From the IMG/VR virus record IMGVR_UViG_3300045988_110279: a DNA stretch of 64,000 nucleotides. One strand, given 5' to 3'. The notes under the pieces are model-generated. The model had not been told where the DNA came from. It made no database searches and saw only the letters and a list, made by a program, of their open reading frames with translations. The stretch is from a virus. Each line of letters begins with the position of its first letter. The first letter of the stretch is position 1. The position numbers were made by a program, and so were the translations under genes. Shown piece by piece: positions 112-64,000 of this stretch.

Positions 112-648
112 TTATACCTTCAATCTCTTGTTAAGTTCAGCAATTAGCTCCTCATTAGTAAAGTCACTAAGAGACTTCTCATTTTTATCAAGAATGAAAG
201 CCGACGCGAGCCCGCCGCTGCCGCCGTAGTTGCCGTGGCCCGCAGACCCACCGATGCCGACAATGCAAACGCAGTTCGAGGCCCAATTATCTTTCTCAGG
301 AGATCCCCAAGGGGTAACAAGCCAGAACCAATTCTTGATATGAGGAGTTAGAATATGATTATACTTGCGATATTCGTCGAAGGTAAGGGGTGCAACAGCG
401 GTATTTAGCGAACCATATCCTTTATATCCATCCATTGCAGTCAGGTCGACATCGCGCGGAATAGCCTTAATGCCAGTTTTCTTAAGCCAAGCCTCAGCGC
501 CCTTCCGCAATGTACTCTCTTTATAGTTATTAGAATTTCCAAAGATAAAATCAATTCCTACTTCAAGTGCAATTACGAAGGGGTTACCATCAATTTCGTC
601 AAGAACAAGGCACTTTACTCCATTTACAGTAATAGTCTCACCAATCAT
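112..648 (-). CDS. C-type-lectin-fold protein; remote DGR target carrying VR2 near its C-terminus
   Basis: Track ORF 112..714; likely start MIGETITVNG with RBS AAAGGAAG. The C-terminus ...NCVCIVGIGGSAGHGNYGGSGGLASAF is encoded by a GC-rich segment homologous to the DGR TR. Confidence 0.6.
   Translation of the reverse strand: MIGETITVNGVKCLVLDEIDGNPFVIALEVGIDFIFGNSNNYKESTLRKGAEAWLKKTGIKAIPRDVDLTAMDGYKGYGSLNTAVAPLTFDEYRKYNHILTPHIKNWFWLVTPWGSPEKDNWASNCVCIVGIGGSAGHGNYGGSGGLASAFILDKNEKSLSDFTNEELIAELNKRLKV
201..280 (-). repeat. DGR variable repeat VR2 (remote copy)
   Basis: About 80 bp homologous to the TR at 59341-59440. Almost all mismatches fall at TR adenines on the coding (-) strand, and the GGGCTCGCG-type 3' end is shared. 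Confidence 0.7.
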
Positions 649-34709: not shown

Positions 34710-37700
34710 GTGGCTAATAATAGAAGATTAAATTATTAGATTGGGTTTGATGTTGATACTGCTGAACTTTACAGAGCAGTAAACGAGGCAGTTCAATCTT
34801 TAAATAAAATCAGTGCCGGTTCTAAAGTTACAGCAGAATTGCGACAAGCTTCTTAGTCTGCGCTAGAGTTATCTACTTATATGCATTAGGCATTTAATCA
34901 AGGGACTGGAAAGTTAGATTTAGTAGCTTTTGAAAATAGTTTAAAATCTAGCGGAAGAACTCTTAAAGATTATGCCAACTCGTTAATTTCGATTGGTACC
35001 GAGGGGCAAAAGGCTTTTTTAAATGTAGCAACAGCGATTCAAAAAGCGGAGCTTCCAGCATTGCGCACTGGCAAAATATTTGATTAGTTATGGATTACTA
35101 TGAAAAATACTATGAGATGGCAGATTACCTCCACCGCGTTAAATAGTTTTGTGGGAACCATAGAATCAGCTTATGGGTATGCACAAGATCTAAATGAATC
35201 ATTAACAAATATTCGTATAGTTACTGAAAATTCTGCGGAAGACATGGCTAAATTTGCTCAATAGGCAAATGAAGCAGCAAAAGCATTAAGTACAACTACT
35301 GTTGAATATAGTGATGCTGCTTTGATTTATTATCAATAGGGTCTTACTGAATAGGAAGTTTTAGATAGAACTGAAACTACTATTAAAATGGCTAATGCCG
35401 CAGGAATTAGTGCATAGACCGCTTCGGATCAGCTGACCGCAGTTTGGAACAACTTCTATGATGGAAGTAAGAGTCTTGAATATTATGCTGATGTAATGGT
35501 GCGTTTAGGCGCCGATACAGCGTCTAGCTCTGATGAAATTTCAGAAGGTATCCAACAATTTGCCTCTGTAGCAGATACAGTTGGATTAAGTTACGAATAT
35601 GCTGCTTCTGCTCTTGCTACTGTCACTGCTACGACACGTGAGTCTGCTAATACAGTAGGTACAGCATTTAGAACTTTATTTGCTCGTATCCAAGGCTTAA
35701 ATCTTGGAGAAACTCTCGATGATGGCACTACATTAAATAAATATTCTAAAGCTCTTGAAAAAGTGGGTATTGATATTTTTGATGTTAATGGTGAGATTAA
35801 AACTATGGATACCTTACTTGATGAAATGGGTTCAAAATGGGAGACCTTATCTAATGACTAGTAGATTGCTTTGGCTTAGACCGTAGCCGGAGCTCGCCAA
35901 TATACTCGTCTTATTGCACTTATGGATAATTGGGATTTCTTTTAGGAGAATTTAGCTAGTGCTTATGGAGCAGAGGGATCTCTTTAGGAACAGGCAGATA
36001 TTTATGCTGAATCTTGGGAAGCTGCTAGAGATAGAGTAAAAGCATCTGCTGAGGATATTTATGATAGTGTCATAAATCCAGATTTGTATATAAATGCAGA
36101 TAATGTCTTAACTCCATTTTTATCTGGTATTGCAGACGCCATTGATGCAATGGGAGGGTTAAATGGTATTTTAGCTAGTACCGCTTTGTTGATTAATGGG
36201 ATTTATGGAAATAAGATTGCTGAATCAATGCGTTCTATGGTGGCTAATATAAAAGTTCTATCTGGATTAGAGTAGAATAGAGCGAGAAATTTGTAGGCAT
36301 CAGCGGCTGAGATAGCAACTCAATTAGGCTTAACAAACTCTATGTCTTAGGCTGAAAAAAATCTTTTTAATATTATGGTTGACTAGGCTAATATATAGGG
36401 CCAAATAAATAGTAACTACGACGCGATGGATGCTAATGGTCGTAGATTAATTTAGACAGAACAGTTAAAATTAAGTATTTTGCAAGATTAGTTAAAGACA
36501 TATTCTTAGTAGTAGATTTAGTCTAGGGAAAATGTATTAAATCTTAGAGATACTATTTATTTTAATATAGGAATAAAAGATGGCTGGCAAGAAGAAGTTA
36601 AAGCAGAAATAAATAAATTTAATAGTAGAAATAAAAGTAATCAAATTTAGTTAAATATAAGAGCTAATAGTAACCTTGATAAAATTTATAATGATGTTAC
36701 TACTTAGTTAACTAGTTTAATTTAGCAATCTACAAAACTTGATACAGTGTATCAAGAATTTAAAAAACTTGAAAGCGCTGGAACTGCGACTAGAGACAGC
36801 CTTCGTAATTTATTATCTAGTGTTACGGGCAAAGAACATAATTATGCTTAGATTGAATGGCTGACTTAGCAATTAGAGGGGTTAAAAAATTAGTCTCAAA
36901 ATGCAAAATTGCAAATTCGTGAACTTGGGACTATTTTATAGACTATGGGAGCCGATCCAAGAGTAGTTACTTCTTATATTAATGAATTAACAAAATTGGA
37001 GTCTGTTACTGCAAGAACAACTGAACAAGAGGCTCGATATTAGGAATTGTTAGCGAAGTTCCCTAGTGTAATTACAAAAGCATTAATACCAACGAGAGAT
37101 TGGGCTACAATATTGGTTTAGGTTGGAAGTTCTCTTTCTAGTTTAACTATGATTATGAATGCTTTTTAGAGCATTGGAAGAATTTTTTCTGATGAAGATA
37201 TGACTTCAACTGAAAGAATTGTAGCTTTGTTTACTTCTCTTGGTATGTTACTACCCTCTATTATTTCTGTTTATAAAACTTTAAATATGTTAACTACTGC
37301 TCATGCTGTTGCAGCAGCGGCGGACGCCGCGGCAACATCAGTAGAGGCTTTAGCGACAGAATAGCTTGCTATGGCGAAGCAGAAAGCCGCTATGGCTTCC
37401 GGCATCTTAACTGCTGCAATTATGGTAGCAATAATAGCGATTACTGCAATAACAAGTGCTATAAAAGCATAGCATGAAGCAACCTTGGCTGCTGCTTAGG
37501 CCTCTATTGATGCGGCAAATGCAAAAAAAGAAGAAGCACAAGCGAATAGAGAGTTAATTCAATCTACTCAAAATGCCTTATCTACTTATCAAGAAACTGG
37601 GGATGGAAAAGAAGAGTTAGATGATTTAACTCGTTAGTTGGCTGAAGCGTATGATTTAGAAGGCAGTGCATTAGCTAGACTAAGTGGATAGTATGAAGAT

Positions 37701-40700
37701 TATAATAGTGTTTTAAAAGCTGCTCAAGAAGCTCAAAGAAGAGAACTTTAGGAAACTTTGTAGTCCCAAGAAGAAGCGTTACGTGCGAATGAAACTCTCA
37801 TTCTTGAAACCGCGAGAGAGGGCGTGGGCCACGTATATTTTGGTGGAAATTATGAGGGGTCTTTTACTGGTTTTAATGATTTTTGGAATGGCACCGAAGA
37901 AGATACTGCATCTAATATTCTTCTCAATAATGTGGACGCTTTATATAGTAGTTGGAATGACAATGTAATTGGCGGAAGAAGAAACTTAGCTTTTTCTATA
38001 GACCCAAATAATACAGAAGAATTAATTAATTTTTATGATCAATTAAATAATGCTATTAATTTGATGAATAATAGCATGACTGTTTCGGAAAGAGGAGTAT
38101 CTGGACTTTACAATGCTGCTGTTGAGTGGCGAGATAAAATGGAAGAGGTTGTCACTCAATATAAAGAAACTAAAGAGAGTATAAATGTTATTCGGGTATA
38201 GCTTGGAGAGTTTAATAATTAGACTATTACCGATGATCAAGTATCAAGTTTAGCGTAGTATAAAATTTGGGTTAACGAAGTTACAGAGGCGCTCACTTCT
38301 GCTGGATATGAAGGCGAAGAATTAAACGATATAATCAATGATTTAGTATCTACTTCTCTGAATCCTGATATTAGTGGCTTTAAAGATATTTATGACGCAA
38401 TTTTAGAGGTTGAAGAATTAGTCAATGATGAAGAATTAAAAAGTAATCTTGAATCTATTTTTACAGATGAAAATTATGATACTTCTGTATTAAATTTATT
38501 AAATTGGGGTGCTTTAACATAGGAGACTTTTTAGGATGCCTATGACAGTGCTAAAAAATATACTGATGCTATTTCCGAAGTTGAAAACGCAACAGAATCT
38601 TTAACTACTGCACAATCTGCCTTAGAAACTCTTGGAGATAGAGATTTAGATCGAGAAGGATTAGAATCACTTTCTAAAACTGTTGATTGGGGAAATCAAG
38701 AAAAAGGAATTATTGATTTTAATTAGTTCCTTGCTATGACTTTAGTTGAACAATAGAGTTATTTATAGAGGATTATAAATGAGTCCTATTAGGCTGTCAA
38801 TAATGGATTAATAGATTAGATTAGTGAAGCAAAAAAGAGAATAACTGAGCAATAGGATATTTTAAATCAATATAGCGATTCTGAATTAGAACGTGCAGAA
38901 AAAGTTGTTTATGCTTGGGAACAAGTTCGAGAAGCGTATAATGATTATCAAGGTAGCTTAAATGGCGGAGAAGAATTTAATCTTGATAATTATACGATTG
39001 ATTGGGATTTGTTAGGTGAAAATTTTGATTGGGAATCTTTTAAAACCGAAACTGCGGATAACGTAGCTAGTGCATTTGAGTATGGGACAAAAGAAGCTCA
39101 AGATAAAATTGATACTGTAACTTTAGCAGAGTAGCTAATTAGTAGTTTATAGGATGATATAGATTCTAGCACAGCTTAGTTACAAATAAATGCAGAATTA
39201 AATTTTTAGAATCAATTAGATTAGATTGAAAATTCCGTTGATGGAATTGTAAGTGTATTCGATGCTATTTCTGATGGAGTAAGCTAGACTACCAATGAAG
39301 CTGGAGAACAAGTTTGGAGTTTTAGTAGAGAAGCAGCTAAGGCTATTGAATCTATCTATCCAGGTTTTATAGCTAACGCGGAATTATTAAGGGATGGTAC
39401 ATTTGCTTTAACAGATGAGATGTATCAAGCATTTTATAATAGTTCTTAGGGGCAATTAGCTGTTGATGCTGATACCAAATCTAATATGCTTCAAAATCTT
39501 ATTTCTCTTTTAGAGGCTAAACGAGGAGAGGCTGAAGCTTCGCTTAAGATCGCTGATCAGCTAGCTTCTGGAGAATTAACTATAAACGAATTATCAGATG
39601 AGCAGAAGAGAACTTTATTAGCGGGATATGTAAATGCTTAGAATCTTGCTAATGGAGAAATGTTAGATGATTAGGTCAATAGTTTAACCGCACAAGATAC
39701 AAATTAGTAGACTTTATGGACTAATGTTAGCGAGTATTCTGCTTAGGGCGCGCAGAACATGAGTACTAATGTATAGTTAAATACTCAAAATGTTCTTGCT
39801 AATCTTGAAAAAATTAGAGATGCGGCATATGCTACTGGAATTCAAGTATCTCAAATAGGAACTGATAATGTTACTAAGCAAGATTTTGATACTTCTGCTG
39901 TTTCTTTTGATAGTTCGGCTGCAACAACAATAGATACGAGTAACGCTGATGATTTCTTAAATTCTTTAGCTGCAAATTTAGATGTAGAACCTGTAACCGC
40001 AGACGATTTAAATATTTATGGTGATGCTAGTGAGGCACTTGAAGCTAAGCAATCTTAGGCAGTTGGAGAAGCGCTAAGGGCCATTTATTAGGGGAGTATT
40101 GATGGGTATAATGAGGCTATAGCAGCAGCAAAAATAGCCTAGAGCAAATTATTAGATTCTATTGATGGAGCTATAGAAGGAGTAAAGGGAAGTTCAAGTG
40201 GCGGAGATAATGAAGGCACTAAGTATGACGAAGAAGATGAAAAGACTCTAAAGGATATTGAAGATAGATACCATGAAATAACTCGCGAAATTGAGAATTA
40301 GAACGATTTATTAGATGATATTGGAAATAATATAGATAGAGCCTATGGCGCCAATAAACTTCAAGCATACTAGAGAGAACTTCAAGAATTAGAGAAATAG
40401 CAAGCTAATTATAACAAACTACTTAATGAAGCTGAAACTTATCTTACAAAAGACTAGGCAGATCTTCAAGGGTTGTTTAATAATTCTCTTATTTTTGATG
40501 AAAATGGAGAAATTGAAGGTTATCAAGCTGTTCTTCAATCTATAATAGATGATTATAATAACAACTTCTTGGCAGATTATAATGCTTTCTTGGCTACTTT
40601 CAGTAATCTTACCAAAGATGAATAGGAAGCTAGATAGGCAGAATATGATAGTTGGCAGTTACAAAAGGAAGCTGCTGATGAATTATTCCAAGCTCGTTAG

Positions 40701-43436
40701 GATGCTCTCGCCCAATACGAAGAAACTCTTGACAAAATTCAAGAAGTAAAGGACGAATAGGAAGAGTTAGAAAGAAATATTGCAGATAATAGATTGAACT
40801 AGATTGAATATAAACTTGAAGTTGTAATAGAAATAAAAGATGCTAAAGATGCTGTTCGTGAATTAACTAAAAAGATCGCAGAATCATTTGGTGACGAATT
40901 AACTCATGGTATTGAAGTCGCTCGTATTGATGAAAATAGTATGAACGAAAATATGAAAATAATCAAGGATTATGAAGAAACACTTAAGAGTTATCAAGAA
41001 GAATTGGCTAACGCAACGGATGCGACTGATATTGATGGAATTATAAGTAAAATATCTGATTTATAGGGTAAAATAATTTCTACCGCAGAAGCTCTACTTG
41101 ATTGGGTAGAGGGTCTTGAAGAAATGTTGCCAGATGCATTAGACGCTGCATCTGAAAGATTCGCTGAATTTACTGATCAACTTGATCATAATGAATCAAT
41201 TCTTGGACTTATAAAAGAATTGTATACACTTTAGGGAGTTACATATAAAACCGAAGAAGGATTTGAATAGCTCCAAAAAGTAAGCGAAGAGACAATGAAA
41301 GCTCAAATAGCAAATGCGCAGTTAAATAAATAGTGGTATGACGGTATTAAATAGGAACTTTTAGAAGCTTAGAGTGCGTTAGATGCATTAGATGGCGATG
41401 AAACAGATCCAGCATATGATGGTTTAAAAGCTAATCGAGATGCATTATTAGAAGAATATAATGAAGCTCAATAGGCGATGTTAAGTTCCGCGCAAGCCGC
41501 TATGGAAACTGCACAAGAAATGTATACTTAGGCTATTGAAAGAGCCGTATATGAATTTGGATAGGCGGTTTCTGGTGGAGTTGGCTTAGATTTGCTACAA
41601 GACAAGTTCGATCATTATATTGAGCAAGAAGATAGATATTTAGATAAAGTAAATGAGGCATATGAAGTATCTTCTTGGTATAATAAACTTCAATAGGATA
41701 TTGATAAAGCTACTAATTCTAAAATGAAAGATTAGTTGAAATAGTTACAAGAAGAAATTGATATTCGTAGAGAGAATAATACTTTATCTGAATATGATCT
41801 AGAAATTCTTGAAGCCAAGTATAATGTTCTTTAGGCCCAGATGGCTCTTGAAGATGCTCAAAACGCAAAAAATCAGCTTAGATTAGTGAGAGATAGCCAA
41901 GGTAACTGGAATTATCAATACACCGCAGATGCGAGCTAGATAGCGGATGCGGAATAGAATTTACTTGATGCAGAGAATGAATGGTATAACATAGCTAAAC
42001 AATAGGTTGAAGATGTTACTGGAGAAATTATTTCTACTTGGCAGGAATGTCAGGATAAAATAAAAGAGATTTATTCTGATATGACCTTGACTGACGAGGA
42101 AAGATCTGCCCGCGCGCAAGAAATCTATTCTTATTATACGCAGAAGGTTAAGGATCTAGAGAACGAAAAACAGATTGCTATTTAGGATATGACCGAAGCC
42201 GGCAATAAAGCCTTAATTGATATGGCTATTGTTGCGGGAGACGAGGTAAGTGACCTAACTGGAATTACAAGTCAAGAAATTTAGGATATTATAGCTAATT
42301 CTGGCTCTAGTATTATTGATTTGTTATTATCTGATAATGAATAGATTCAAGATATAGTTGGAAGTAATACAAAACTTATTGATTTATTTGATAATGTTTT
42401 CGCAAAAGATCTTGCTAATATGACTTCTAATGCTGGAAATTTTGAAGATTTTCTATCTAAGGCCATGGACGAAGCAAGTGGAGCGATGGAAGATTATCAA
42501 ACTACTGTCTCTGGAGTTGCAGATTAGACTGGAACAAGTCTTGATGATTTAGAAGGTTATCTTGATGATGTTACAACTTCTACAGAGTTATGTTCTGATG
42601 CAGGATCGGAAGCTGTCACTTAGATGTTAGAATAGATAAGCACTATTCAAGATTTAAGTCAAGAATATTTAGACATGGCTAAATCAGTTAGAGAATATAT
42701 AAGGGCTCTTGAGGAGGCTGCTAGAGCAGCTGGAAATACAATAGAAAGCGCTGGAGGAATAGATAAAGATGATTTACCTCCCGCTAATTCAGATCAATCT
42801 TCTGATAATAACTCTAGCAATAGTAATAGCGGATCTTCCAGTGGAGGAGCTGGAAGTGGCAATGGAATCCCAGAAGTAGGAGACGAAGTCATTTATACTG
42901 GTGGAACTTATTATCATGATTCTTATGGCACAGATCCAGCAGGTAGACGTGGGCCCGGCAAGAAAGTTAAAATAACTAATATAGCTAAAGGCAGACCATA
43001 TCCGATTCATGTATAGTCTAATAATTCTGCATATGGCTGGTTAAAAGAAAGTCAAATAAGCGGATTTGATACAGGAGGTTATACTGGAGAATTTGATAAT
43101 GCTAAATTAGCTTTCTTGCACGAAAAAGAGTTAGTTTTAAATCAAGAAGATACGAAAAATATTCTCGCGGCGGTTTCTGCTATAAGAGCTTTTGAACCTA
43201 GTTTTATAGCTTCTATAGAGAAAGCGCTTGATGGAAATGCACTATCTATTTCTAATCTTATGGCATCAAGATTAGGATCTAATACTTAGATTACTCCAGC
43301 AGATAACACAGTTGAACCGTATATAAATATTGAGCGAGTTGAGTTCCCAAATGCGACATCTTCTGATGAAATTCAAGATGCTATTCGTAGTTTGGCTGAT
43401 GATGCTACTCAATGGGCAAATAGAAGAAAGGGATAA
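34710..43436 (+). CDS. tail tape-measure protein (~2908 aa)
   Basis: GTG start after AAAGGAGG. Track ORFs 35496.., 36084.., 37824.. and 42675.. are all in this frame, and I saw no TAA/TGA between them. A TM segment (AIMVAIIAITAITSAI) and Q/E/A-rich coiled coils are present. Confidence 0.6.
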
Positions 43437-55886: not shown

Positions 55887-56669
55887 ATGGCTTTATTTAA
55901 GATTTTTCGAGGACCAGAAGATAATTTGAATAGTGTACCTCTTCATGAAGGATACGCTTATTTCACAGAAGATAAAGGAAATCTCTTTATTGATATTAGT
56001 AATGAAGAAGGTGGGCGTTTGCAGGTAAATGCCTATGCTGCTCAAGTTCTAAAGAATGATATTACTGAGATTGATATTGATGATATTTTTCTTAAAAATA
56101 TGACTGCCACTGTAGCTCAGGGCGGAACTGGACATAATAGTCTAACTGTAAATGCTTTATTAATTGGTAATGGAACTAATGCGGTAAAGATGGTTGAAAT
56201 TGCGGCTGGTTAGATTGTTATCGGAAATAGCGAGAATGGTGTAACAGGATTGCAAGGAACTGGCGCTTTATTTGCCGCTACAGCTGGCGCTCCGCAATTT
56301 GGAACGCTTCCAATTTCAGTTGGTGGAACCGGGGCAATTAATGCAGCAGGGGCGAGAACTAATTTAGATGTGTATAGCAAATTGGAAACAGATAACTAGA
56401 TTAGTGGAAGTACTACGGCAGCTTATCCAGCAACTCTTTCTGCATCAGGTTGGGTATTAAATGAAGATATGTATACATATACTTATTCCAATACTTCTTT
56501 AACTTGCGGAAAAGCAGGTAATGTGCCACCTATTATTAGTTATACTTCTAATCTTGAAGAGTATAGTAAAATTGATCACGCTGATGCATCAGTTGGGGTT
56601 GGAATTACCTTTTATACAAAAGAAAAACCAACAAATGATATTGCTATTATTATCATTGATGTAAAATAA
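55887..56669 (+). CDS. tail fibre protein (conserved N-terminal MALFKIFRG...QGGTG module)
   Basis: Track ORFs 55887.. and 56469.. are joined by TAG readthrough. Confidence 0.55.
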
Positions 56670-56720
56670 AAAAAATGGGGAGAACCTTTGAAATTAAGGT
56701 TCTCCCCATTTTTTTTATTT
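56669..56720. terminator. strong bidirectional terminator between convergent blocks
   Basis: aaaaaaaatggggagaacc-tttgaaattaa-ggttctccccattttttttat. Confidence 0.75.
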
Positions 56721-57173
56721 CTCGCAAGGAGGTTTACTATATAAATGATAATGCGGTTTTTCTTCTCCAAACCATTTCCATCTTAGGTAGTCGTCTAATA
56801 CTATTGCCAAAAGGCTTAAAAAGAACCAGGCGATAGAGAATGGTAAACAAATCTACCCCATAAAATTCAATGGAACGTGAGAATAATCCCAAATACCTAA
56901 GCCTAGTTTTACATTTAATACTAGACCAAAGATTAATTCTAAAGCAGTTATGATTAAAGAGCCTTTTACTCCTTGAGTAAGAATAGATTCTTCCCAAAGA
57001 ACGTTCTCATTCATTAGTCCTATTAATAAAAAGCATAAGCCGCCCAATAAGAACATAGACCAATGACAAGTTCCAAAGCTGATAAAAGTTTTATAGAGGA
57101 ACTCTATACCGTAATATAGAGTTCCTCCAACTGCAAATAGAATTATATTTTTACTCACTGTCGGTATCTTCAT
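56715..57173 (-). CDS. multi-pass membrane protein (holin-like?); one TAG
   Basis: Track ORF 56853..57173 extended through TAG: ...LNFMG(Q)ICLPFSIAWFFLSLLAIVLDDY... Confidence 0.4.
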
Positions 57174-57813
57174 AGTTTAATTCAATAGCTTTTAATTTAT
57201 CTATTGAATCAGCTTCGAATATCTAAGTTTTATATTCTTGCATTAAATGATATTTGGGATATACCACATTTAAAATAGCTAAACTTAGAGCGGATAATTG
57301 CTCTAAACTCCATGGCACACATTCTTCGTGTCGAGCGTGCCACTCAAGCGTAGGATTTTCTACTTCAGCCGCGAGAGCGACTTGATATTGATTGAGATTT
57401 AAGCTAATCTCAGACTGGTCCTCCTACGTAATTCCATATTCTTTTCCATCAACCCAAGTTAGTGGGTGGGTAGCAAGATACTCTGCGAATAGTTTCTTGT
57501 TTTCCTCTTGTTTGTCATACTTTGCCTAATCTAAATCAGAAGTGAATGTTCCATCTTCTTGATTATATATTGAATAATTAGGAGTAACATCTGATGGAAT
57601 TGTTTCTATCTCTAATACTTTTACAGCATTAGATTGATTTAATACATCGGCTTTAATTAGAGTATAATGTGTATCTCCATTTGAGCCGATAACCCCAGTT
57701 CCCTCTTCTTCCTCGCAGGCAACGACAATACCATTTGAGGATTGCAGTTTAATGTAACGTGCTTCTGAAAGAATATCAACTACTACATTCTCTCTATTTA
57801 ATAGAATATACAT
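57151..57813 (-). CDS. hypothetical protein (220 aa)
   Basis: Track ORF 57526..57813 extended through TAGs. Its stop overlaps the start of the membrane-protein gene. Confidence 0.4.
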
Positions 57814-57989
57814 TACTTTATTTCAACTCCTTTAAATAATGAACGAAAATAATTGTCCATATCTTGAATTATATAAAAACAAGTTCCTTTAGAAATATGT
57901 GCCCTCCAACCTTGATAGGATTTCTAAATTTCATCTGTTGAAATTTTACCCTCTAACCATAGCGCTTGCATTTTCTTTAACTTTCTGCG

Positions 57990-59031
57990 CTAATGAGCCA
58001 CTTTCTTTTTAAAAGGAATTTGTATTATATGATTAGTGTCTGTGAGATAAAAGTTCCACTTTAAGTATTTTAATGGAGCGTGACGTTTGCCGTCCGCATG
58101 AATAGGAGAGATTCTAGTAATAGTAGTCTTTTTCTTATTCATCTTTAATCCTTGCTTATTTAAGCGAACTTCTATTCTCTTTTCACATTCGGCTAAGTAT
58201 TGACTGTCATTGTGGAATAAATATAAATCATCCATATAACGACCATAATACTTAATATGTAACTCTTCTTTGATGAAGTGGTCAATTTCGTTCAATGCTA
58301 GCAATGCGAATAATTGTGATGTTTGACTTCCTAATCCAAGACTTTTATTATCATATTCATAGTATTTGCGGCCAGGCTTAAAATTAGTGGTACTAATTCT
58401 CGTGTATTTGTGCCGTTTACTAATATAATAATCTTTTCCTGGTATGGGAGAGGAATCTTTTGTTAGCTTAAAAGAAAATGTATCTATTAAATAACAGCAT
58501 AGTTGATAAATTCTTTTATCTTTTATCAAACGTTTAGCCGCTTTCTTTAAAGATTTATGGTCAATAGAATCAAAATATTTTTGAATATCAATTCTTAACC
58601 CATAAAAATCTTTTCCTAATCCATATTCTCTATGAGCTTGTTGAAGATGTTTCTTTACTCTTTTTAAAGCAAAGTCTATTCCTTTTTCCTCTTAAAGTAG
58701 CACAATTATCGTAGATAAATCTAGGAGTTAATTCTGGTAATAAAACTTGTTCACATAACGCATTTTGTACCAGTCTGTCGTTGATATGACACGCTCTTAT
58801 ATCTCTTGGTTTGCCTCGTTCGATTATCGAAAAACAACTAAACACAAGCTATTCGTATTCACACGCTCGCAGATCAGCTTCTGTTTTTAAAATTGTTTCT
58901 ATCCTATTCTCTTCAAAATTAATTGTACTATCTTTCCATCGAACGTTTCGGCATACCTTATAAGACGCATCATACATAGTGTCAAAACTACAAAAACGCT
59001 CGAAAGTAGTATCTTGATTTATTTCAGACAT
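57990..59031 (-). CDS. DGR reverse transcriptase (contains one sense TAG and an apparent +1 frameshift in an A5 run near 58683-58687)
   Basis: RT motifs 1-2 (RDIRACHINDRLVQNALCEQVLLPEL), A (DFYGLRIDIQKYFDSIDH), a DGR-type motif 4 (LGLGSQTSQLFALLALNEID) and YMDD. Three track ORFs (58849.., 58630.., 57990..) cover it. Confidence 0.75.
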
Positions 59032-59340
59032 ACTTTCTCCTTATCATGTAGCTATAGTGGTAGCTACTCGAGCTCCACGTCTACAGTCTTACTTTATCCA
59101 CTTTTTCAGTGAAATGGTTAAGTTCTCCTTAGATGAAAAGGCAGATCTACCTATAGTATATTATTCGATAGTTGTAGAGCAAAGCTCTTTAATGGTCTCT
59201 CAATCTCTTCCCCACATAGTGAGTGCAATCCAGAGTAAACCTTAATTAGATGGATAATAATATACTCCGGGGTACTATTTAGGCGTTGCTCGTTTGCGCT
59301 GCTCCGCAGCTTAACTCGCAACATGATAGCTCCATCTAAT

Positions 59341-59440
59341 CCGGCGCGAGCCCGTTGCTGTTGTTGTAGTTGTTGTTGTTCGCAGATCCATCGTTGTTGA
59401 CATTGCAAACGTTGTTCGAGTTGTTGTAGTTACGGGACCG
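59341..59440 (-). repeat. DGR template repeat (TR)
   Basis: Adenine-rich on the minus strand. It is homologous to 60064-60163 and 201-280, with mismatches confined almost entirely to TR adenines. Confidence 0.8.
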
Positions 59441-59626
59441 AAAGATACAGAACTTAACCGCAGAAAAATATTATCGACCTCTCCTATGGGTTTTAGGAGC
59501 CGAATATCTATGCTCGACTATAAGTTTATCTCTATTTTTTCTATCTTGGATTGATTCTTTTACTTTCTTAGTCAATCTAGCTAGATGTTCAAAAGATCTT
59601 CTTTTCTTTTTGCTGTTCTGAGCATA

Positions 59627-59965
59627 CTAATAAATACATAGGTCGATTTGTCGAAATATACTATCACAATATTCAATCGCTCTATTGTGATATTCATTTC
59701 TTTTTGTAAGGGTTTCTTTATCTTTTAAGTTTATCCTACACGCCTCATAACAGCAAGCGTGTATACCCTTTCCGCATTTAATTATATCGTACCCGAACGC
59801 TTGAAGAGGTTGACCCTCTCCAAGCAGTCCAGGTTTGCAGATTTGTTTTCCATCCTTATCAAATTCTCTAGGACGAGTTAAGACTAAAATGTAGCCAACC
59901 AATTCACGGGCTTTATAAAGACAGTCTTGTTTTGATAGGTGTCTATCCTTTACTTTTACAGACAT
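59627..59965 (-). CDS. avd: Avd-like accessory variability determinant (basic, 112 aa)
   Basis: Track ORF. Assigned from its position between the target gene and the TR, and from size and charge typical of Avd. Confidence 0.45.
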   Translation of the reverse strand: MSVKVKDRHLSKQDCLYKARELVGYILVLTRPREFDKDGKQICKPGLLGEGQPLQAFGYDIIKCGKGIHACCYEACRINLKDKETLTKRNEYHNRAIEYCDSIFRQIDLCIY

Positions 59966-60000
59966 TTAAAATTTCCCTCACTTGAATATATAATTTTTTT

Positions 60001-60055
60001 ATTGGACAATTTAACCTTAACTGTCCCGAATTGTTATTTTGCTGTATTATCCAAT
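60001..60055. promoter_or_regulatory. inverted repeat immediately downstream of VR1 (attggacaat...attatccaat)
   Basis: 10-bp stem with 1 mismatch and no U-tract on the gene strand. It sits where DGR hairpin/cruciform elements are found. Confidence 0.4.
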
Positions 60056-61804
60056 GACGAAAGCCGGCGCGAGCCCGCCGCTGCTGTAGTCGGTGTAGCC
60101 GCCCGCAGACCCATCGGTGTAGACAATGCAAACGCTGCCCGAGTTGCCGTAGTAACGGGACCGTTCCCAATACCACATCGTTGAATTCGTCAACGAACCA
60201 TTGGCGTTCATCTGGTATTTAACTCTAGTAGAGTTGCTTGTATAGTAACTATAGGCCGTCTAACTTCCTCCAACAGTCCACTCCTAATAAGAACTAGCAT
60301 AGCCGCTAGAGCTAGTAAATCCCATCTCACATTCAGAAGGTAGCCAACATTTTGCAGTTGTTTGAACATCCGCAGTATTATTCTAATTACCATTACTAGC
60401 AGAACTTGTCTTCTTAGTAACAGATTTAATAGAAGCGGTTGCGCTACATCTATTACCAAAATCATTGCACAAGGATTGAGCGGTTGAACCATTCCATAAC
60501 GCGTTACTACCAAATGATGTACTGTTAGGTAAAGTTCCCGCAGTCTGGAAAGTTAATGTTCCAGTTCCATCCTAATCAGCACCAATACAAATCATTGTAG
60601 CAGCGTTGGCACCAAGTACCGCACTAGAAAGACTTACAAGTTTCTTTTTACCTACACATTTCTTTCTTTCACTGGAAGAAGCCTTAGCTGCCCAGGTCTT
60701 TAATCCAGCCCACCACTTAGCATCACCAGTAGCAGTTTCAGAACCCCACTCCCAATAGCTTGCTGTTACTGTAACAGTCTTGTTACCTGGAGCAGTATGG
60801 TTAGTTCCGGCCGCAACTTTAATAGTAATCGTGGTAGAAGAAATAGCTGTACTGCCATCACCTTTAATAGTAAGAATATTACCACTTAAAGAGAGGGTAA
60901 GACCAGTAACACTAGTTGGAGTATAGCTAATAGCTCCATCTCCCGCGCGAGTAATAGTAACTTTAACGCCAGCACTATAATTATCTCCATCAAGAGCAAC
61001 AGAAGTTGGATTTACGGTTAAACTACCCGCGGCTTTATTAATAACCCAGTTTACATCAAGATTATCGGTTGTCTTATCAGCCCATCTATAGTTGCTCTTT
61101 AGAGTAAATGTAGCTGTATAAGTTCCTGCGTTAGTAGCGGAAGTAGTTCCACCAATCGTCATATAAGTGGTATTGAAATTATTCCAATAAGAAGTTCCAC
61201 TTACTGATTGACTATTACCTGTATAGGTAAGATTACTTTTCCAGGTTGGTTTAGCGACAGATTTACGCTCAACAGTTACCGTAAATTTCGCAGATTGAGT
61301 TACTTCATTCTCTGTATAAGAAACAGTAATTTGCTAGCTGCCAACTGTAGTTAAGGATGTTGGTGAGCACGTATAACCTGTGACAGCCGCGCTTTTACTA
61401 TCAGAGTAACTCGCTGTAACTACCATTCCTGTTGTTTGAAGGGTGTCGCCATATTCATAGGTCATCTTAGTTGGATTAGTAATAATCTAAATACTAAGAA
61501 GTTTATGAATAACAGTTACCTTCTAGGTAGTTTGACAAGTTTCACCGAGTTCTGAATAAGTAATAGTTACTTCAGTAACTCCATCTGTTAAAGGACTGGG
61601 AGTAACTTGATATCCAGTTACTTCTGCTGTTGTTACAATAACGCCATCCATGCCGTAAGATGCGGTAACTACCATTCCAGCAGGATTAAATGTGTCACCA
61701 GCAAGATAGCTTGTTTTATTAGGGGGAGTGGTTACTTCAATTTTTACAAGAGAAAGAGAGCCTCCACCTTTTCCACCCTACTCAGCTAAAATACATTTAG
61801 GCAA
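60047..61804 (-). CDS. DGR target protein: Ig-like repeats plus C-terminal C-type-lectin-fold variable domain (585 aa, 5 TAGs)
   Basis: TTG start 7 nt after a GAAGGAGGT RBS. Track ORF 60572..61162 is one in-frame segment. C-terminus reads CWLPSECEMGF...VCIVYTDG... Confidence 0.6.
60064..60163 (-). repeat. DGR variable repeat VR1
   Basis: Encodes ...WYWERSRYYGNSGSVCIVYTDGSAGGYTDYSSGGLAPAF at the 3' end of the target gene. A to N differences relative to the TR. Confidence 0.8.
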
Positions 61805-61978
61805 ATTGTTTACCTCCTTCTATCTAGCTATTGCTATAAACAAATCTAAATTACTAGATAGAAGGTCGAGGATGGAAGCGATCTTCGCTCCAGTCTTTTA
61901 GAAAGTCATTAACAATTTCCGAGAAAAAGTACACTTTTTAACAGGAAAAATACTTCTTCTGTCTAGATAATAAAAAAT

Positions 61979-62009
61979 TGGGAAAAGGGTAAGAAACCCT
62001 TTTCCCAAA
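61979..62009. terminator. hairpin ttgggaaaaggg-taagaaa-cccttttcccaa
   Basis: Perfect 12-bp stem in the divergent intergenic region, with a T-run on the minus strand. Confidence 0.5.
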
Positions 62010-62129
62010 AGTGAGTATCTTACTCTTTTCAAATATATATGAAAGAAAGAGTAGATAAATTATATATAGTTGACCAAGTTCAGTAAAGTGTACTTTTTTA
62101 AAGATTTTAGATGAAAGGAGAAAATATCT

Positions 62130-62768
62130 ATGGAATGTATTTTAACTGGATAGGTTAAAAATCAAAATGCTATTACCGTACCAGGCGGCGGTAGCGCAGA
62201 AATGGGAGAAACATTAGGGTTAGGGCCTTATACTATTGAATTTGATGAAGAAGATAATGAAAATCTTACTGCATCATCAATAGAATATAATAATGAAGCT
62301 TCAAGTATGAAAGCCACTAATGTTCAATCAGCTATTGATGAGCTTTTTACCGATGTCAGTGAGGGCAAAACCCTAATAGCGACCGCAGTCACTGACAAGG
62401 GAGTAGAAACTGCGGCAACCGATAGTTTTTCAACTATGGCAGATAAGATAGGATAGATTACAACAGAAACCCCTATAGAAACAGTAGATGTTATATTCGA
62501 GTCATTGAGAGGTATAAGTGGAGGTACAGTGATAATAGAATATGAAAATGCACCAATGTCAGTATGGGTAATGCAGAAAAATAATTATAAAGTAATAAAA
62601 AATAGCATTTTAACTATAAATGCCGGTTCTTCTTCAGGGCTCAAAATTACTCCCCAGTCTGCATATGAAAGTTTGGGGGCTATATTAATAAATAATAATT
62701 ATCAAGTTATAGCATATAAAATTATTGGTCCCGCTACAATTACTTCTACTGGAGGTAATATTGATTAA
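62130..62768 (+). CDS. tail fibre-like protein (212 aa)
   Basis: RBS AAAGGAGA. Track ORFs 62202.. and 62505.. are joined by TAG. Confidence 0.45.
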
Positions 62769-62790
62769 ATTTAGGAGGTAGTATTATACT

Positions 62791-63189
62791 ATGATAAAAG
62801 TAAATGGGAAAAAGGTTGCTGGAATAGGGTAGCCTGGATTAAACGGCAAATCTGCTTATGAAACAGCTAAAGAAGGAGGGTTTACTGGAACTGAAAAGGA
62901 GTTCAATACTATATTAGCAAATTCTGCACTTAAACCTATTATTAAATTGATAACTCTATATTCATCAGCTTGGTCTAATAATACTCAAACAGTAAATATA
63001 ATTGGAGTATTGAGCGATGAGGGCAAATAGATAATTTGTCCAACTCCAACAATAAAAGATATAGATATATATAATAATTCAGGCATTTAGTGTATAAATC
63101 AACAAGAAAATAGTTTAACTTTTAAAGCCCAAAAAATTCCAGAAAATGATATATAGATATATATAATTTTGTAGGAGGTGCGAACATGA
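62791..63189 (+). CDS. tail fibre-associated protein with GQPGLNGKSAYETAKEGGFTGTEKEF motif
   Basis: RBS AGGAGGTA, TAGs as sense, TGA stop overlapping the next ATG. Confidence 0.45.
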
Positions 63190-63434
63190 TTATTAACCAA
63201 ACTTTTCAGACGGAAAAGTATTCAATAATAGATAAAACAAGCCTTCAATATGGCTATCCAGTAAGAGCAACCCCTGGGGAAATTGTTTACAGCAGTCCTA
63301 TGAGTGCAGGAATATCAGATAATGTATATTTAATAAAAGATGGAAGCTCTATTGATAATGTTTATTCAGATGGTAGATATAAATTTATAATGCCAGAAGG
63401 TGATGTTTTGATTGCTAGAGATTATCCTTGGTAA
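63186..63434 (+). CDS. hypothetical protein (TAG-free)
   Basis: Track ORF. Confidence 0.45.
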   Translation: MIINQTFQTEKYSIIDKTSLQYGYPVRATPGEIVYSSPMSAGISDNVYLIKDGSSIDNVYSDGRYKFIMPEGDVLIARDYPW

Positions 63435-63468
63435 TCTTATATATATTATATAATAAAATTTTATATAA

Positions 63469-64000
<532 letters not shown>

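Follow-up and report, generated by a model that had tools for sequence, protein, structure and literature searches.

A diversity-generating retroelement rewriting two receptor-like proteins of a gut-type phage

Organization of the minus-strand cassette

The window analysed here, a stretch of 64,000 nt from the virus record IMGVR_UViG_3300045988_110279, carries on its minus strand a unit in which a large target gene ending in a variable repeat (VR1), an accessory gene in the Avd position, a template repeat (TR) and a reverse transcriptase (RT) gene follow one another, with two further genes (57813-57151 and 57173-56715) behind them. An earlier note on this DNA had read the layout as a diversity-generating retroelement (DGR); both the order and the identification were right, and every feature it described was found in its place. 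The element further includes a second, remote variable repeat (VR2) and a pair of covarying RNA elements that lie between TR and the RT gene. The minus-strand unit likely ends at a perfect inverted repeat of 25 bp (56664-56720), a bidirectional terminator-like hairpin that is not a component of the DGR. No GenBank phage matched the cassette by megablast. Beyond the cassette, the segment at 62466-63438 is not simply inverted in two related loci, L003 and L004, but replaced.

Target gene 1 (60050-61804, minus strand) begins at a TTG that is preceded by the ribosome-binding site AGGAGG, and codes for 584 aa. The product matches phrog_37900 of PHROGs, and Pfam assigns to it Big_3 Ig-like repeats (5.8e-14) followed by DUF6273 (1e-10) at aa 432-584, in agreement with the Ig-like, lectin-like target that had been proposed; this C-terminal DUF6273 domain carries VR1. 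An exact look-up of a 54-aa ORF bearing VR1 returned no record. Target gene 2 (112-648, minus strand), which harbours VR2 at a distance of 59 kb from the TR/RT cassette, encodes a small stand-alone protein of 178 aa with a C-terminal helix. Translation starts from the ATG at 648; homologues do not use another ATG further upstream, at 714. The protein matches phrog_9958 and the C-terminus of target 1 (BLASTP E = 3e-5), it has more than 300 homologues, of which those listed are almost all 178 aa long, and at 90% identity its cluster comprises 573 distinct sequences. The VR2 protein of the window itself did not reach E 0.1 against DUF6273, which was a weak match in 91 of 110 homologues (best E 4.6e-5), and the link of this protein to the C-type-lectin-like DUF6273 is an indirect one. 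For the targets generally, a C-type-lectin fold is suggested by the Pfam DUF6273 assignment together with published C-type-lectin-like models of this domain (PMC10743442); an AlphaFold2 model of the VR2 protein, built on 110 close homologues, was unusable (pLDDT 37).

The accessory gene (59471-59965, minus strand) encodes a protein of 164 aa and pI 9.7, with one in-frame TAG at codon 113, and its predicted fold is a basic four-helix bundle with a beta-hairpin insert. The small basic ORF that the first reading had put in the Avd position is Avd-like by position, charge and predicted fold, but not by sequence similarity to known Avd proteins. No such link came from single-sequence or profile searches of the PDB, from Pfam, from a profile search of 1.84 billion proteins or from Pfam scans of the most distant members, and NCBIfam contained no Avd model matching the protein.

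Both RNA elements lie in the spacer downstream of TR. The first (59244-59341, minus strand) is directly 3′ of TR, in the position of the BPP-1 Sp, and consists of an 11-bp closing helix (59341-59331 with 59254-59244) around a three-tier stem-loop (59322-59285). Analysis of 10 distinct sequences by RNAalifold and pair counts found 92.5% of cells paired, against 29-58% in slid controls, and compensatory changes at nine pairs; none of 500 shuffles was as good. Just before the ribosome-binding site of the RT gene comes the second, a conserved stem-loop (59048-59084, minus strand; helices 4 and 5 of alignment A8). It shows compensatory changes in 7 of 11 pairs, and its observed score was likewise reached by 0/500 shuffles. 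A search of Rfam with 57500-62200, TR-proximal RNA included, returned nothing near threshold.

The RT gene is spread over two frames, a 5′ part (58684-59031, minus strand; codons 1-116, of which codon 61 is a TAG read as sense) and a 3′ part (57813-58682, minus strand; codons 117-405 and a TAA, with TAG sense codons at 347 and 369). The RT motifs LGLGSQTSQLFA, NEID and YMDD all fall within the ORF 57990-58529, as had been described, and the 3′ part carries LGLGSQTSQ (motif 4) in addition to YMDD, LGSQTSQ fitting the DGR motif [LIV]GxxxSQ. The end of the gene had been set at 57990, which is 177 nt too early: the TAG there is a sense codon, and the ORF continues to the TAA at 57815-57813. The product matches Pfam RVT_1 (1.3e-16) and phrog_1423 (3.5e-84). 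Its placement, taken from best PDB and phage matches rather than a formal phylogeny, is with DGR RTs. The best solved relative is the RT of the BPP-1 DGR (bRT, 8ub7, E = 5e-15), in an alignment that crosses the frameshift junction (query aa 11-162), and group II RTs (1.6e-7) and retron-type RTs (4e-4), an affinity with which would have spoken against a DGR according to the earlier note, rank behind it. The nearest annotated phage RTs come from the DGR phages nd12 (35% identity), Shimadzu, Toutatis, Lelie (29%) and Bordetella.

The RT, Avd-like and VR1-target genes all need TAG as a glutamine codon for their translation. In the frame map, target 1 contains TAG in frame 8 times but neither TAA nor TGA, which upholds the sense use of TAG noticed in this gene before; the Avd-like gene has one, the RT gene three and one late ORF up to 101, and TAG (292) is about as frequent as CAA (290). 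Across the TAG columns of 35 RTs, CAA or CAG was aligned in 258 of 477 cases, and at the three TAG sites of the RT in the window every relative has TAG, CAG or CAA save two, which have ATG at one site. Most homologues of the Avd-like protein have Q at the TAG position. A tRNA search of the window found none, so no suppressor tRNA (anticodon CTA), and none of the seven tRNAs in an array just outside the window in the source contig is a suppressor, in searches that covered all but about 73 kb of the genome. Such a tRNA has been reported in only 13% of TAG-recoded genomes (PMC9610469). The remote target gene 2 has zero in-frame TAG, so that the timing of its expression may differ from that of target 1.

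Adenine-specific differences between the repeats

TR (59341-59440, minus strand) is 35% adenine. Read in the frame of VR1 it includes 14 AAC codons, and 34 of its 35 adenines stand at codon positions 1-2. VR1 (60064-60163, minus strand; 100 nt) forms the last ~33 codons of target 1, and the direct repeat 59338-59440/60061-60163 was recovered independently of the earlier note. Tabulating mismatches by TR base, a check which that note had suggested, gave 21 differences in the 100-nt core. Of these, 20 fall on adenines of TR (13 A>G, 5 A>T, 2 A>C) and one on a T, which makes 20/35 A sites versus 1/65 non-A sites (Fisher p = 1e-10). VR2, to which the note had merely alluded, was located at 201-280 on the minus strand. 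It is homologous to the 3′ 80 nt of TR (59341-59420), from which it differs at 20 positions, 19 of them adenines (19/28 A versus 1/52 non-A, p = 1e-10). No third VR was found within the window.

The same bias holds beyond this genome. Each of the 23 related loci in which TR and VR1 were tabulated has a VR1 of its own, and the two repeats differed at 421 of 836 A sites versus 5 of 1464 non-A sites. Inside each subgroup of relatives TR is identical or nearly so, while the VRs differ. The loci L003 and L004 have 17 differences in 13,215 nt, 16 of which are VR1 sites at TR adenines. Among 110 homologues of the VR2 protein, high variation was confined to 13 sites in aa 125-145, with 9-15 residues per site, plus one with 5. 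Furthermore, non-adenine variants of TR (GGGCTGG, GGACTGG and GTTAAC) recur in VR1 and VR2 of the same genome, which supports a one-way transfer from TR to the VRs. A conserved TR beside VRs that differ in every related contig indicates that the DGR is active in this lineage of related phages and that diversification of the VRs is ongoing there.

These differences also bear on whether the locus is a DGR at all. NCBIfam, which has no DGR RT model, gave as the top matches of the RT a group II maturase, at 73.9 bits, and Drt3a, at 50.6 bits, as might be expected of a group II intron, retron or defence RT lying next to an ordinary duplicated segment that resembles a TR/VR pair. However, both scores are far under the respective cut-offs of 300 and 200 bits, and Rfam gave no intron or retron RNA family. 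This reading, which we regard as extremely improbable, is refuted by the affinity of the RT to a DGR enzyme, by the adenine-specific mismatches in the window and its 23 relatives, and by VR hypervariability alongside a conserved TR, as in the VR1 differences between L003 and L004.

The 3′ boundary of VR1 (60057-60076, minus strand) is IMH-like: after the GC-rich GGGCTCGCGCCGG comes CTTTCGT. In the window as in its relatives, GGGCTCGCGCCGG is followed by CTTTC(G/A)T in every VR1 and VR2 examined and by ATTAGAT in every TR. In VR2 the continuation is CTTTC, as in VR1, and its GC-rich element has a C>T change at 204 that is absent from the five relatives examined. On the BPP-1 model, the ATTAGAT of TR would stand in the IMH* position and the VR boundary may function as an IMH. 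A hairpin or cruciform of the BPP-1 kind was sought directly 3′ of the VRs, but the stems found there were weak and not conserved (z about -1).

We therefore consider that two receptor-like proteins of this gut-type phage are rewritten at adenine-templated positions by a DGR, and we put the probability at roughly 0.9 that the element is a two-target phage DGR of the BPP-1 type, in a phage of ~147 kb that reads TAG as glutamine in its late genes. By analogy with the established BPP-1 model, the minus-strand unit would be transcribed, the RT and the Avd-like protein would bind the structured RNA 3′ of TR, and TR would be copied into cDNA with misincorporation opposite template adenines. The cDNA would then take the place of VR1, which lies 723 nt upstream, and of VR2 at a distance of 59 kb, guided by their common GC-rich/CTTTC 3′ boundary, so that rewriting would be limited to the ligand-binding loop of both DUF6273-type, lectin-like proteins.

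A frameshift in the reverse transcriptase gene

The two frames of the RT are due to a single extra A at 58683-58687 (minus strand), where a run of five A (A5) takes the place of four (A4) and frame 0 reads GGA-AAA-AGG. This +1 frameshift had been missed, and the earlier description of the DGR as complete does not strictly hold, as the present copy has no intact RT ORF. The frameshift bears on the function of this copy and not on the identity of the element. The RTs of relatives are 1215 nt long in a single frame, and the lesion is missing from at least 38 of 43 related RT sequences: loci L001-L034 gave full-length RT matches with lengths that are multiples of three, and L041, L046, L047, L049 and L050 align to the intact reference RT free of gaps. 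All eight relatives aligned at the A5 site lack the extra base, and the RT of L048 retains A4 there. Otherwise, A5 was found only in L045 (JGI contig, 3300029736), which was reached by protein look-up, an exact search for the A5 allele in IMG/VR and JGI metagenome contigs having given 0 matches. The window and L045 are identical over 6.3 kb apart from VR1, with 23 differences, all at adenine sites.

By a narrow balance, we prefer a genuine and recent mutation to an assembly error as the origin of the extra A. If so, the DGR of this genome would be disabled, or at best leaky, in a lineage whose DGR appears to be active. Three near-identical relatives carry independent RT lesions (L005, CGA>TGA at codon 55; L044, -1 at codon 143; L048, -1 at codon 222), which shows RT loss to be natural in the lineage, and natural RT loss has been reported for the DGR of a recoded gut phage (bioRxiv 10.1101/2023.08.07.552389). 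A5 is also present in an assembly of another pipeline and source (JGI 3300029736), though the reads behind L045 may be the same ones, assembled anew. Furthermore, A5 is the sole coding indel outside the variable repeat over 7-8 kb against relatives of 99.4-99.6% identity, and because other coding indels are absent, the window does not look like an error-prone assembly. We give somewhat less than even odds to a sequencing or assembly error that conceals an intact RT and a fully functional DGR. An error is conceivable at this site, a single-base gain within a homopolymer in a sequence whose identical source contig, NODE_89, has low k-mer coverage (cov 7.98). A complete difference in VR1 between the two A5 assemblies is also what a working RT would give, and the lesion-free majority of related RTs points the same way.

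L045 shares A5 yet has a wholly different VR1, which speaks against a frameshift allele that is simply dead. It is possible, although improbable, that A5 is real and RT is still made, either by a +1 slip at GGA-AAA-AGG or in trans from co-infecting A4 phages; near-identical A4 alleles (L049 and L050, one SNP per 2.6 kb away) do co-circulate. On the slip route, the Lys tRNA would re-pair with AAA one base downstream while the rare AGG stalls the A site, the next codon, GGA, would bring back the RT frame, and homing would go on despite A5. The candidate +1 slip segment is GGAAAAAGGAAT. AGG is rare in this phage (2.0 versus 20 per 1000 codons for AGA), and AAA-AGG occurs in frame a single time in 15,488 codons. 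Shifts of +1 at a slippery codon followed by a rare AGG are established in other systems, namely CUU-AGG-C of Ty1 and AGG-AGG in E. coli. However, all other relatives have an in-frame A4, so that there is no conserved programmed shift signal, the proposed site has no stimulatory element, both assemblies may stem from one heterogeneous sample with A4 and A5 genomes, and A4>A5 may have arisen twice. We think it similarly unlikely that homing persists on a real A5 allele, by leaky slip or trans RT, while VR2 has been frozen by the point mutation in its GC-rich IMH-like element. The idea starts from two observations, a VR1 rewritten independently in the two A5 assemblies and a VR2 protein identical on three contigs; if true, it would amount to a natural genetic dissection of a DGR in which RT dosage is separated from target-site requirements. 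The recurrent RT lesions and an A5 allele with a rewritten VR provide a small natural experiment on DGR loss and retention.

Comparison with known systems

Every element of the present architecture has already been published for gut phages. DGRs in TAG-recoded gut phages have been described before, as have remote VRs, targets with DUF6273 and the natural loss of an RT, so that this DGR is a new member of a kind already known, and the current understanding of DGRs is unchanged by our findings. Its value is as a clean, well-populated two-target DGR of a stop-codon-recoded gut phage with dozens of relatives. Current DGR detection models overlook the Avd-like accessory gene, and this sequence-divergent protein and the covarying TR-proximal RNA could serve to widen them.

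Among the closest known systems is the DGR of Bordetella phage BPP-1 (mtd-avd-TR-brt), with which the element shares the order of target with VR, accessory gene, TR, spacer and RT, an AAC-rich TR with adenine-specific changes in the VR, a GC-rich 3′ boundary with a difference between VR and TR just downstream (IMH versus IMH*), and a structured RNA between TR and RT. Its RT is closest to bRT among solved RTs, and its accessory protein is likewise a basic four-helix bundle by prediction. Unlike BPP-1, it shows low RT identity with an insertion of ~50 aa located between aa 163 and 229, an accessory protein (164 aa) that contains a beta-hairpin insert and does not resemble Avd in sequence, a spacer of 310 nt where BPP-1 has ~140 nt, no conserved hairpin after the VR, a target domain that is DUF6273 behind Ig-like repeats rather than that of Mtd, a second VR 59 kb off, and genes that need TAG = Gln.

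The targets resemble those of the Faecalibacterium prophages Lelie, CP11, Roos and Pioen (PMC11792537) and the gut phages nd4 and nd12 (PMC10743442), which also combine one large Ig-repeat target with one small DUF6273-only target and have the VR in the C-terminal part of a DUF6273 domain modelled as C-type-lectin-like. The present phage differs from these in its RT, with an identity of just 29-35%, in its TAG-recoded genome of ~147 kb, and in its small target, which is encoded in a TAG-free region at a distance of 59 kb from the cassette. In the ‘tentaclins’ of nd4 and nd12, DUF6273 is at the N-terminus, whereas in the present target it is at the C-terminus. As in the gut Caudoviricetes with distant repeat pairs (PMC9610469), one copy of the repeat is remote from the RT.

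The TAG-recoded phages that persist in the infant gut (bioRxiv 10.1101/2023.08.07.552389) have a comparable DGR, with several in-frame TAG in the RT gene, which lies beside the recoded gene of a structural target; the VR at the 3′ end of this target gene changes by mutation over time. In one of them a natural deletion of 502 nt removed the RT and the VR then froze. The lesion described here is an insertion of 1 nt, and the VR1 of a second assembly with the same A5 allele is different, contrary to what a simply frozen state would predict.

Template, variable repeats and reverse transcriptase

The minus-strand element is a diversity-generating retroelement (DGR) in both mechanism and membership, as the earlier note had proposed, and the identification is carried by adenine-specific mismatches, a reverse transcriptase (RT) of DGR type and a target gene bearing a variable repeat (VR). 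A repeat finder returned a single direct repeat in the 55–64 kb region (59338-59440 and 60061-60163), within which lie the 100 nt cores of the template repeat (TR; 59440-59341, minus strand) and of VR1 (60163-60064, minus strand), where the reading from sequence had placed them. The cores differ by 21 mismatches in 100 nt, 20 at TR adenines and one at a T (20/35 adenine sites vs 1/65 non-adenine sites, p = 1e-10), and the adenine changes comprise 13 A>G, five A>T and two A>C. With respect to the VR1 frame, 34 of the 35 TR adenines fall on codon positions 1 or 2, and 14 TR codons are AAC. Scanning with the non-adenine TR positions revealed one additional copy in the whole window, VR2 (201-280, minus strand), which corresponds to the 3′ 80 nt of the TR; when its mismatches were tabulated by TR base, as had been suggested, adenines accounted for 19 of 20.

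With its frame repaired and TAG read as glutamine, the RT matched Pfam RVT_1 and phrog_1423. Its best solved relative was the BPP-1 DGR RT (8ub7; 5e-15), in an alignment that passes unbroken over the frameshift junction and outranks those to group II intron RTs (1.6e-7) and retron-type RTs, so that the original assignment to the DGR class stands. The closest annotated phage RTs share at most 35% identity, and come from DGR-bearing gut phages and Bordetella phages. Compared with the BPP-1 bRT, the window's enzyme has an insertion of approximately 50 aa between fingers motifs (58340-58545, aa ~163-229), the length of which is constant across relatives.

Variation throughout the lineage follows the same pattern. 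When TR and VR1 were tabulated in 23 related loci, the TR varied little or not at all within subgroups, and no two loci had the same VR1, with differences at 421 of 836 adenine sites versus 5 of 1464 other sites. Two IMG/VR relatives from separate metagenomes, L003 and L004, differ at 17 of 13,215 positions, 16 of which are in VR1 at TR adenines. The non-adenine TR variants GGGCTGG, GGACTGG and GTTAAC recur in VR1 of the same contig, and in contig 080502 a TR variant also recurs in VR2, 56 kb away; information therefore flows from the TR to both targets. Across 110 VR2-protein homologues, only 13 sites at aa 125-145 are highly variable (9-15 residues per site, plus one site with five), and the 90%-identity cluster of the window's own VR2 protein holds 573 distinct sequences.

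Target 1 consists of Big_3 Ig-like domains followed by a C-terminal DUF6273 domain with VR1 at its end, in agreement with the predicted lectin-like, VR-bearing C-terminus behind Ig-like repeats; published modelling gives DUF6273 a C-type-lectin-like form in which the VR is a surface hairpin (PMC10743442). The VR2 gene product, 178 aa in nearly all homologues listed, aligns to the target 1 C-terminus (E = 3e-5). DUF6273 is weakly matched by 91 of the 110 VR2-protein homologues, and the window's own VR2 protein did not reach E 0.1 against this domain.

Gene boundaries and TAG recoding

In a three-frame map with the stop codons separated, the cassette genes were interrupted by TAG alone. Target 1 (61804-60050, minus strand, 584 aa) contains eight in-frame TAG codons, bearing out the suggestion that TAG is a sense codon there, the gene in the Avd position (59965-59471, minus strand, 164 aa) contains one and the RT (59031-57813, minus strand, 405 aa) three. 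Because TAG is the only interruption, the TAG at 57990, where the RT had been thought to end, is a sense codon, and the gene actually stops at the TAA at 57815-57813. Alignments indicate that TAG is decoded as glutamine: in the TAG columns of 35 aligned RTs, 258 of 477 non-TAG codons are CAA or CAG; the window's three RT sites hold TAG, CAG or CAA in all relatives bar two (ATG, at one site); and the TAG position of the 164-aa protein is Q in most homologues.

The window as a whole is phage, with portal, virion proteins and tail fibres, and its use of the genetic code falls into two parts. In-frame TAG is absent from minus-strand ORFs at 1-17 kb, and plus-strand late ORFs at 18-57 kb contain up to 101, the number found in ORF 34710-43436 (2908 aa). 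TAG (292) is about as frequent as CAA (290), and CAG is rarer (80). No tRNA genes were found within the window. An array of seven lies 7-10 kb beyond the window start in the identical ENA contig (L040, 17633-19899), comprising Ile-TAT, Leu-CAA, Asn, Leu-TAG, Leu-GAG, Asp and Glu; no TAG suppressor is among them.

A frameshifted RT beside a rewritten VR1

The earlier note had called the DGR complete. Every other defining feature examined is present, Avd by predicted fold and the IMH boundary by sequence pattern only, but the RT of the window copy is not intact: codons 1-116 and codons 117-405 occupy adjacent frames, with the junction GGAAAAAGG at 58689-58681. The extra base is missing from all eight relatives for which this junction was aligned, which read GGAAAAGG or an equivalent, and all 34 IMG/VR relatives gave full-length RT matches with lengths that are multiples of three. 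Versus relatives 99.4-99.6% identical over 7-8 kb, the extra base is the sole coding-region indel outside the variable repeat. Over 10.6 kb the window matches ENA ERZ826732 NODE_89 (147,132 nt, coverage 7.98) at 100% identity, and the same allele, five adenines rather than four at 58683-58687 (A5 rather than A4), was found in JGI contig 3300029736 (L045; 147,203 nt).

Other copies that share 98% identity or more with the window's RT carry independent lesions, one nonsense (L005, CGA>TGA at codon 55) and two 1-nt deletions (L044, codon 143; L048, codon 222), giving four different lesions, the window's included, among roughly 20 near-identical sequences. Most copies retain an intact RT (L001-L004, L041, L049-L050 and eight others).

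L045 matches the window across 56627-62965 except in VR1, which differs at 23 positions, 23/23 adenine-templated. Both genomes carry A5, and at least one homing event therefore separates two lesion-bearing genomes. VR1 lies 1.4 kb from the A4/A5 site. Several explanations are possible. The two A5 assemblies may be drawn from one heterogeneous population, or slippage from A4 to A5 may be recurrent. RT could also be provided in trans by co-circulating A4 phages such as L049 and L050. Finally, leaky +1 decoding could occur at the AAA-AGG site (GGAAAAAGGAAT), a possibility favoured by the rarity of AGG in this phage (2.0 per 1000 codons versus 20 for AGA).

The window's VR2 has a C>T change at 204, in the GC-rich boundary, that is absent from 5/5 relatives, and its protein sequence occurs in identical copies on three contigs; both observations are consistent with a frozen VR2, although the samples may not be independent. 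Many short contigs of the window phage begin or break at the VR1 3′ edge, which is what assemblies fragmented by VR heterogeneity within a sample would show. Window position 60077 is where L049 and L050 begin, and L060, a related contig, has N inside VR1.

Accessory elements, neighbouring features and known systems

All VR1 and VR2 examined have GGGCTCGCGCCGG followed by CTTTC(G/A)T, and all TRs have GGGCTCGCGCCGG followed by ATTAGAT, which as a sequence pattern only appears to be an asymmetry of the IMH/IMH* type. A conserved hairpin 3′ of the VRs was not found. Two conserved elements that show compensatory changes lie in the 310 nt between TR and RT: element 1 (59341-59244, minus strand) has an 11-bp closing helix starting from the last TR base and enclosing a three-tier stem-loop, and element 2 (59084-59048, minus strand) lies directly before the RT ribosome-binding site. 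In each, pairing covers approximately 92-93% of cells, and both sides are changed in 9-10 pairs; 0/500 shuffles reached the observed values, slid controls were 29-58% paired, and Rfam gave no match at either element. By likeness to the BPP-1 Sp RNA, the elements may position the RT/Avd complex and the priming site.

The small basic ORF taken for Avd has the expected position, pI (9.7) and predicted fold, a four-helix bundle whose first two helices are separated by a beta-hairpin (pLDDT 90), but no sequence match in Pfam, PHROG, NCBIfam or PDB. Because helical bundles are promiscuous in fold searches, we grade this 164-aa protein as Avd-like only, by predicted fold and position. Its family is small, with 91 proteins returned by one search and 28 representatives by another that covered 1.84 billion proteins.

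Downstream of the RT, 56715-57813 holds two co-oriented genes in an order shared by the related locus L041: the first (220 aa) has an ATG overlapping the RT stop (TAATG) and a weak DUF4376 match, and the second encodes a 152-aa membrane protein (PF06541, phrog_20274). At 56664-56720, between the converging plus-strand tail-fibre gene and minus-strand DGR unit, the arms of a 25-bp inverted repeat match perfectly around a 7-nt loop, with runs of A and T at the flanks; this forms a bidirectional terminator-like hairpin, and the few non-coding indels versus close relatives concentrate there. The minus strand also has a strong terminator-like hairpin at 61978-62008, made of 13 pairs with a T run after them and lying approximately 175 nt before the start of target 1; it could act as an attenuator or terminate an upstream unit, and a promoter-like site (62087-62059) lies upstream of it. 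A serine DNA invertase gene (phrog_125) runs from 63505 to the window end, adjoining tail-fibre-like ORFs (62130-62768 and 62725-63189). L003 and L004, otherwise 98% identical, have unrelated sequence of similar length in place of 62466-63438. The region 62130-64000 may thus be a second tail-fibre variation system, by cassette exchange or inversion, beside the DGR.

Much of this organization is already in the literature, including RTs and adjacent structural targets that are both recoded, a naturally lost RT in the DGR of a recoded gut phage (bioRxiv 10.1101/2023.08.07.552389), distant VR copies, and pairs of large and small DUF6273 targets, as in Faecalibacterium prophages (PMC11792537). New but minor, in comparison with these systems, are the sequence-divergent Avd-like family, the covarying spacer RNA, the remote target in a TAG-free part of the genome and the puzzle of the frameshifted RT.
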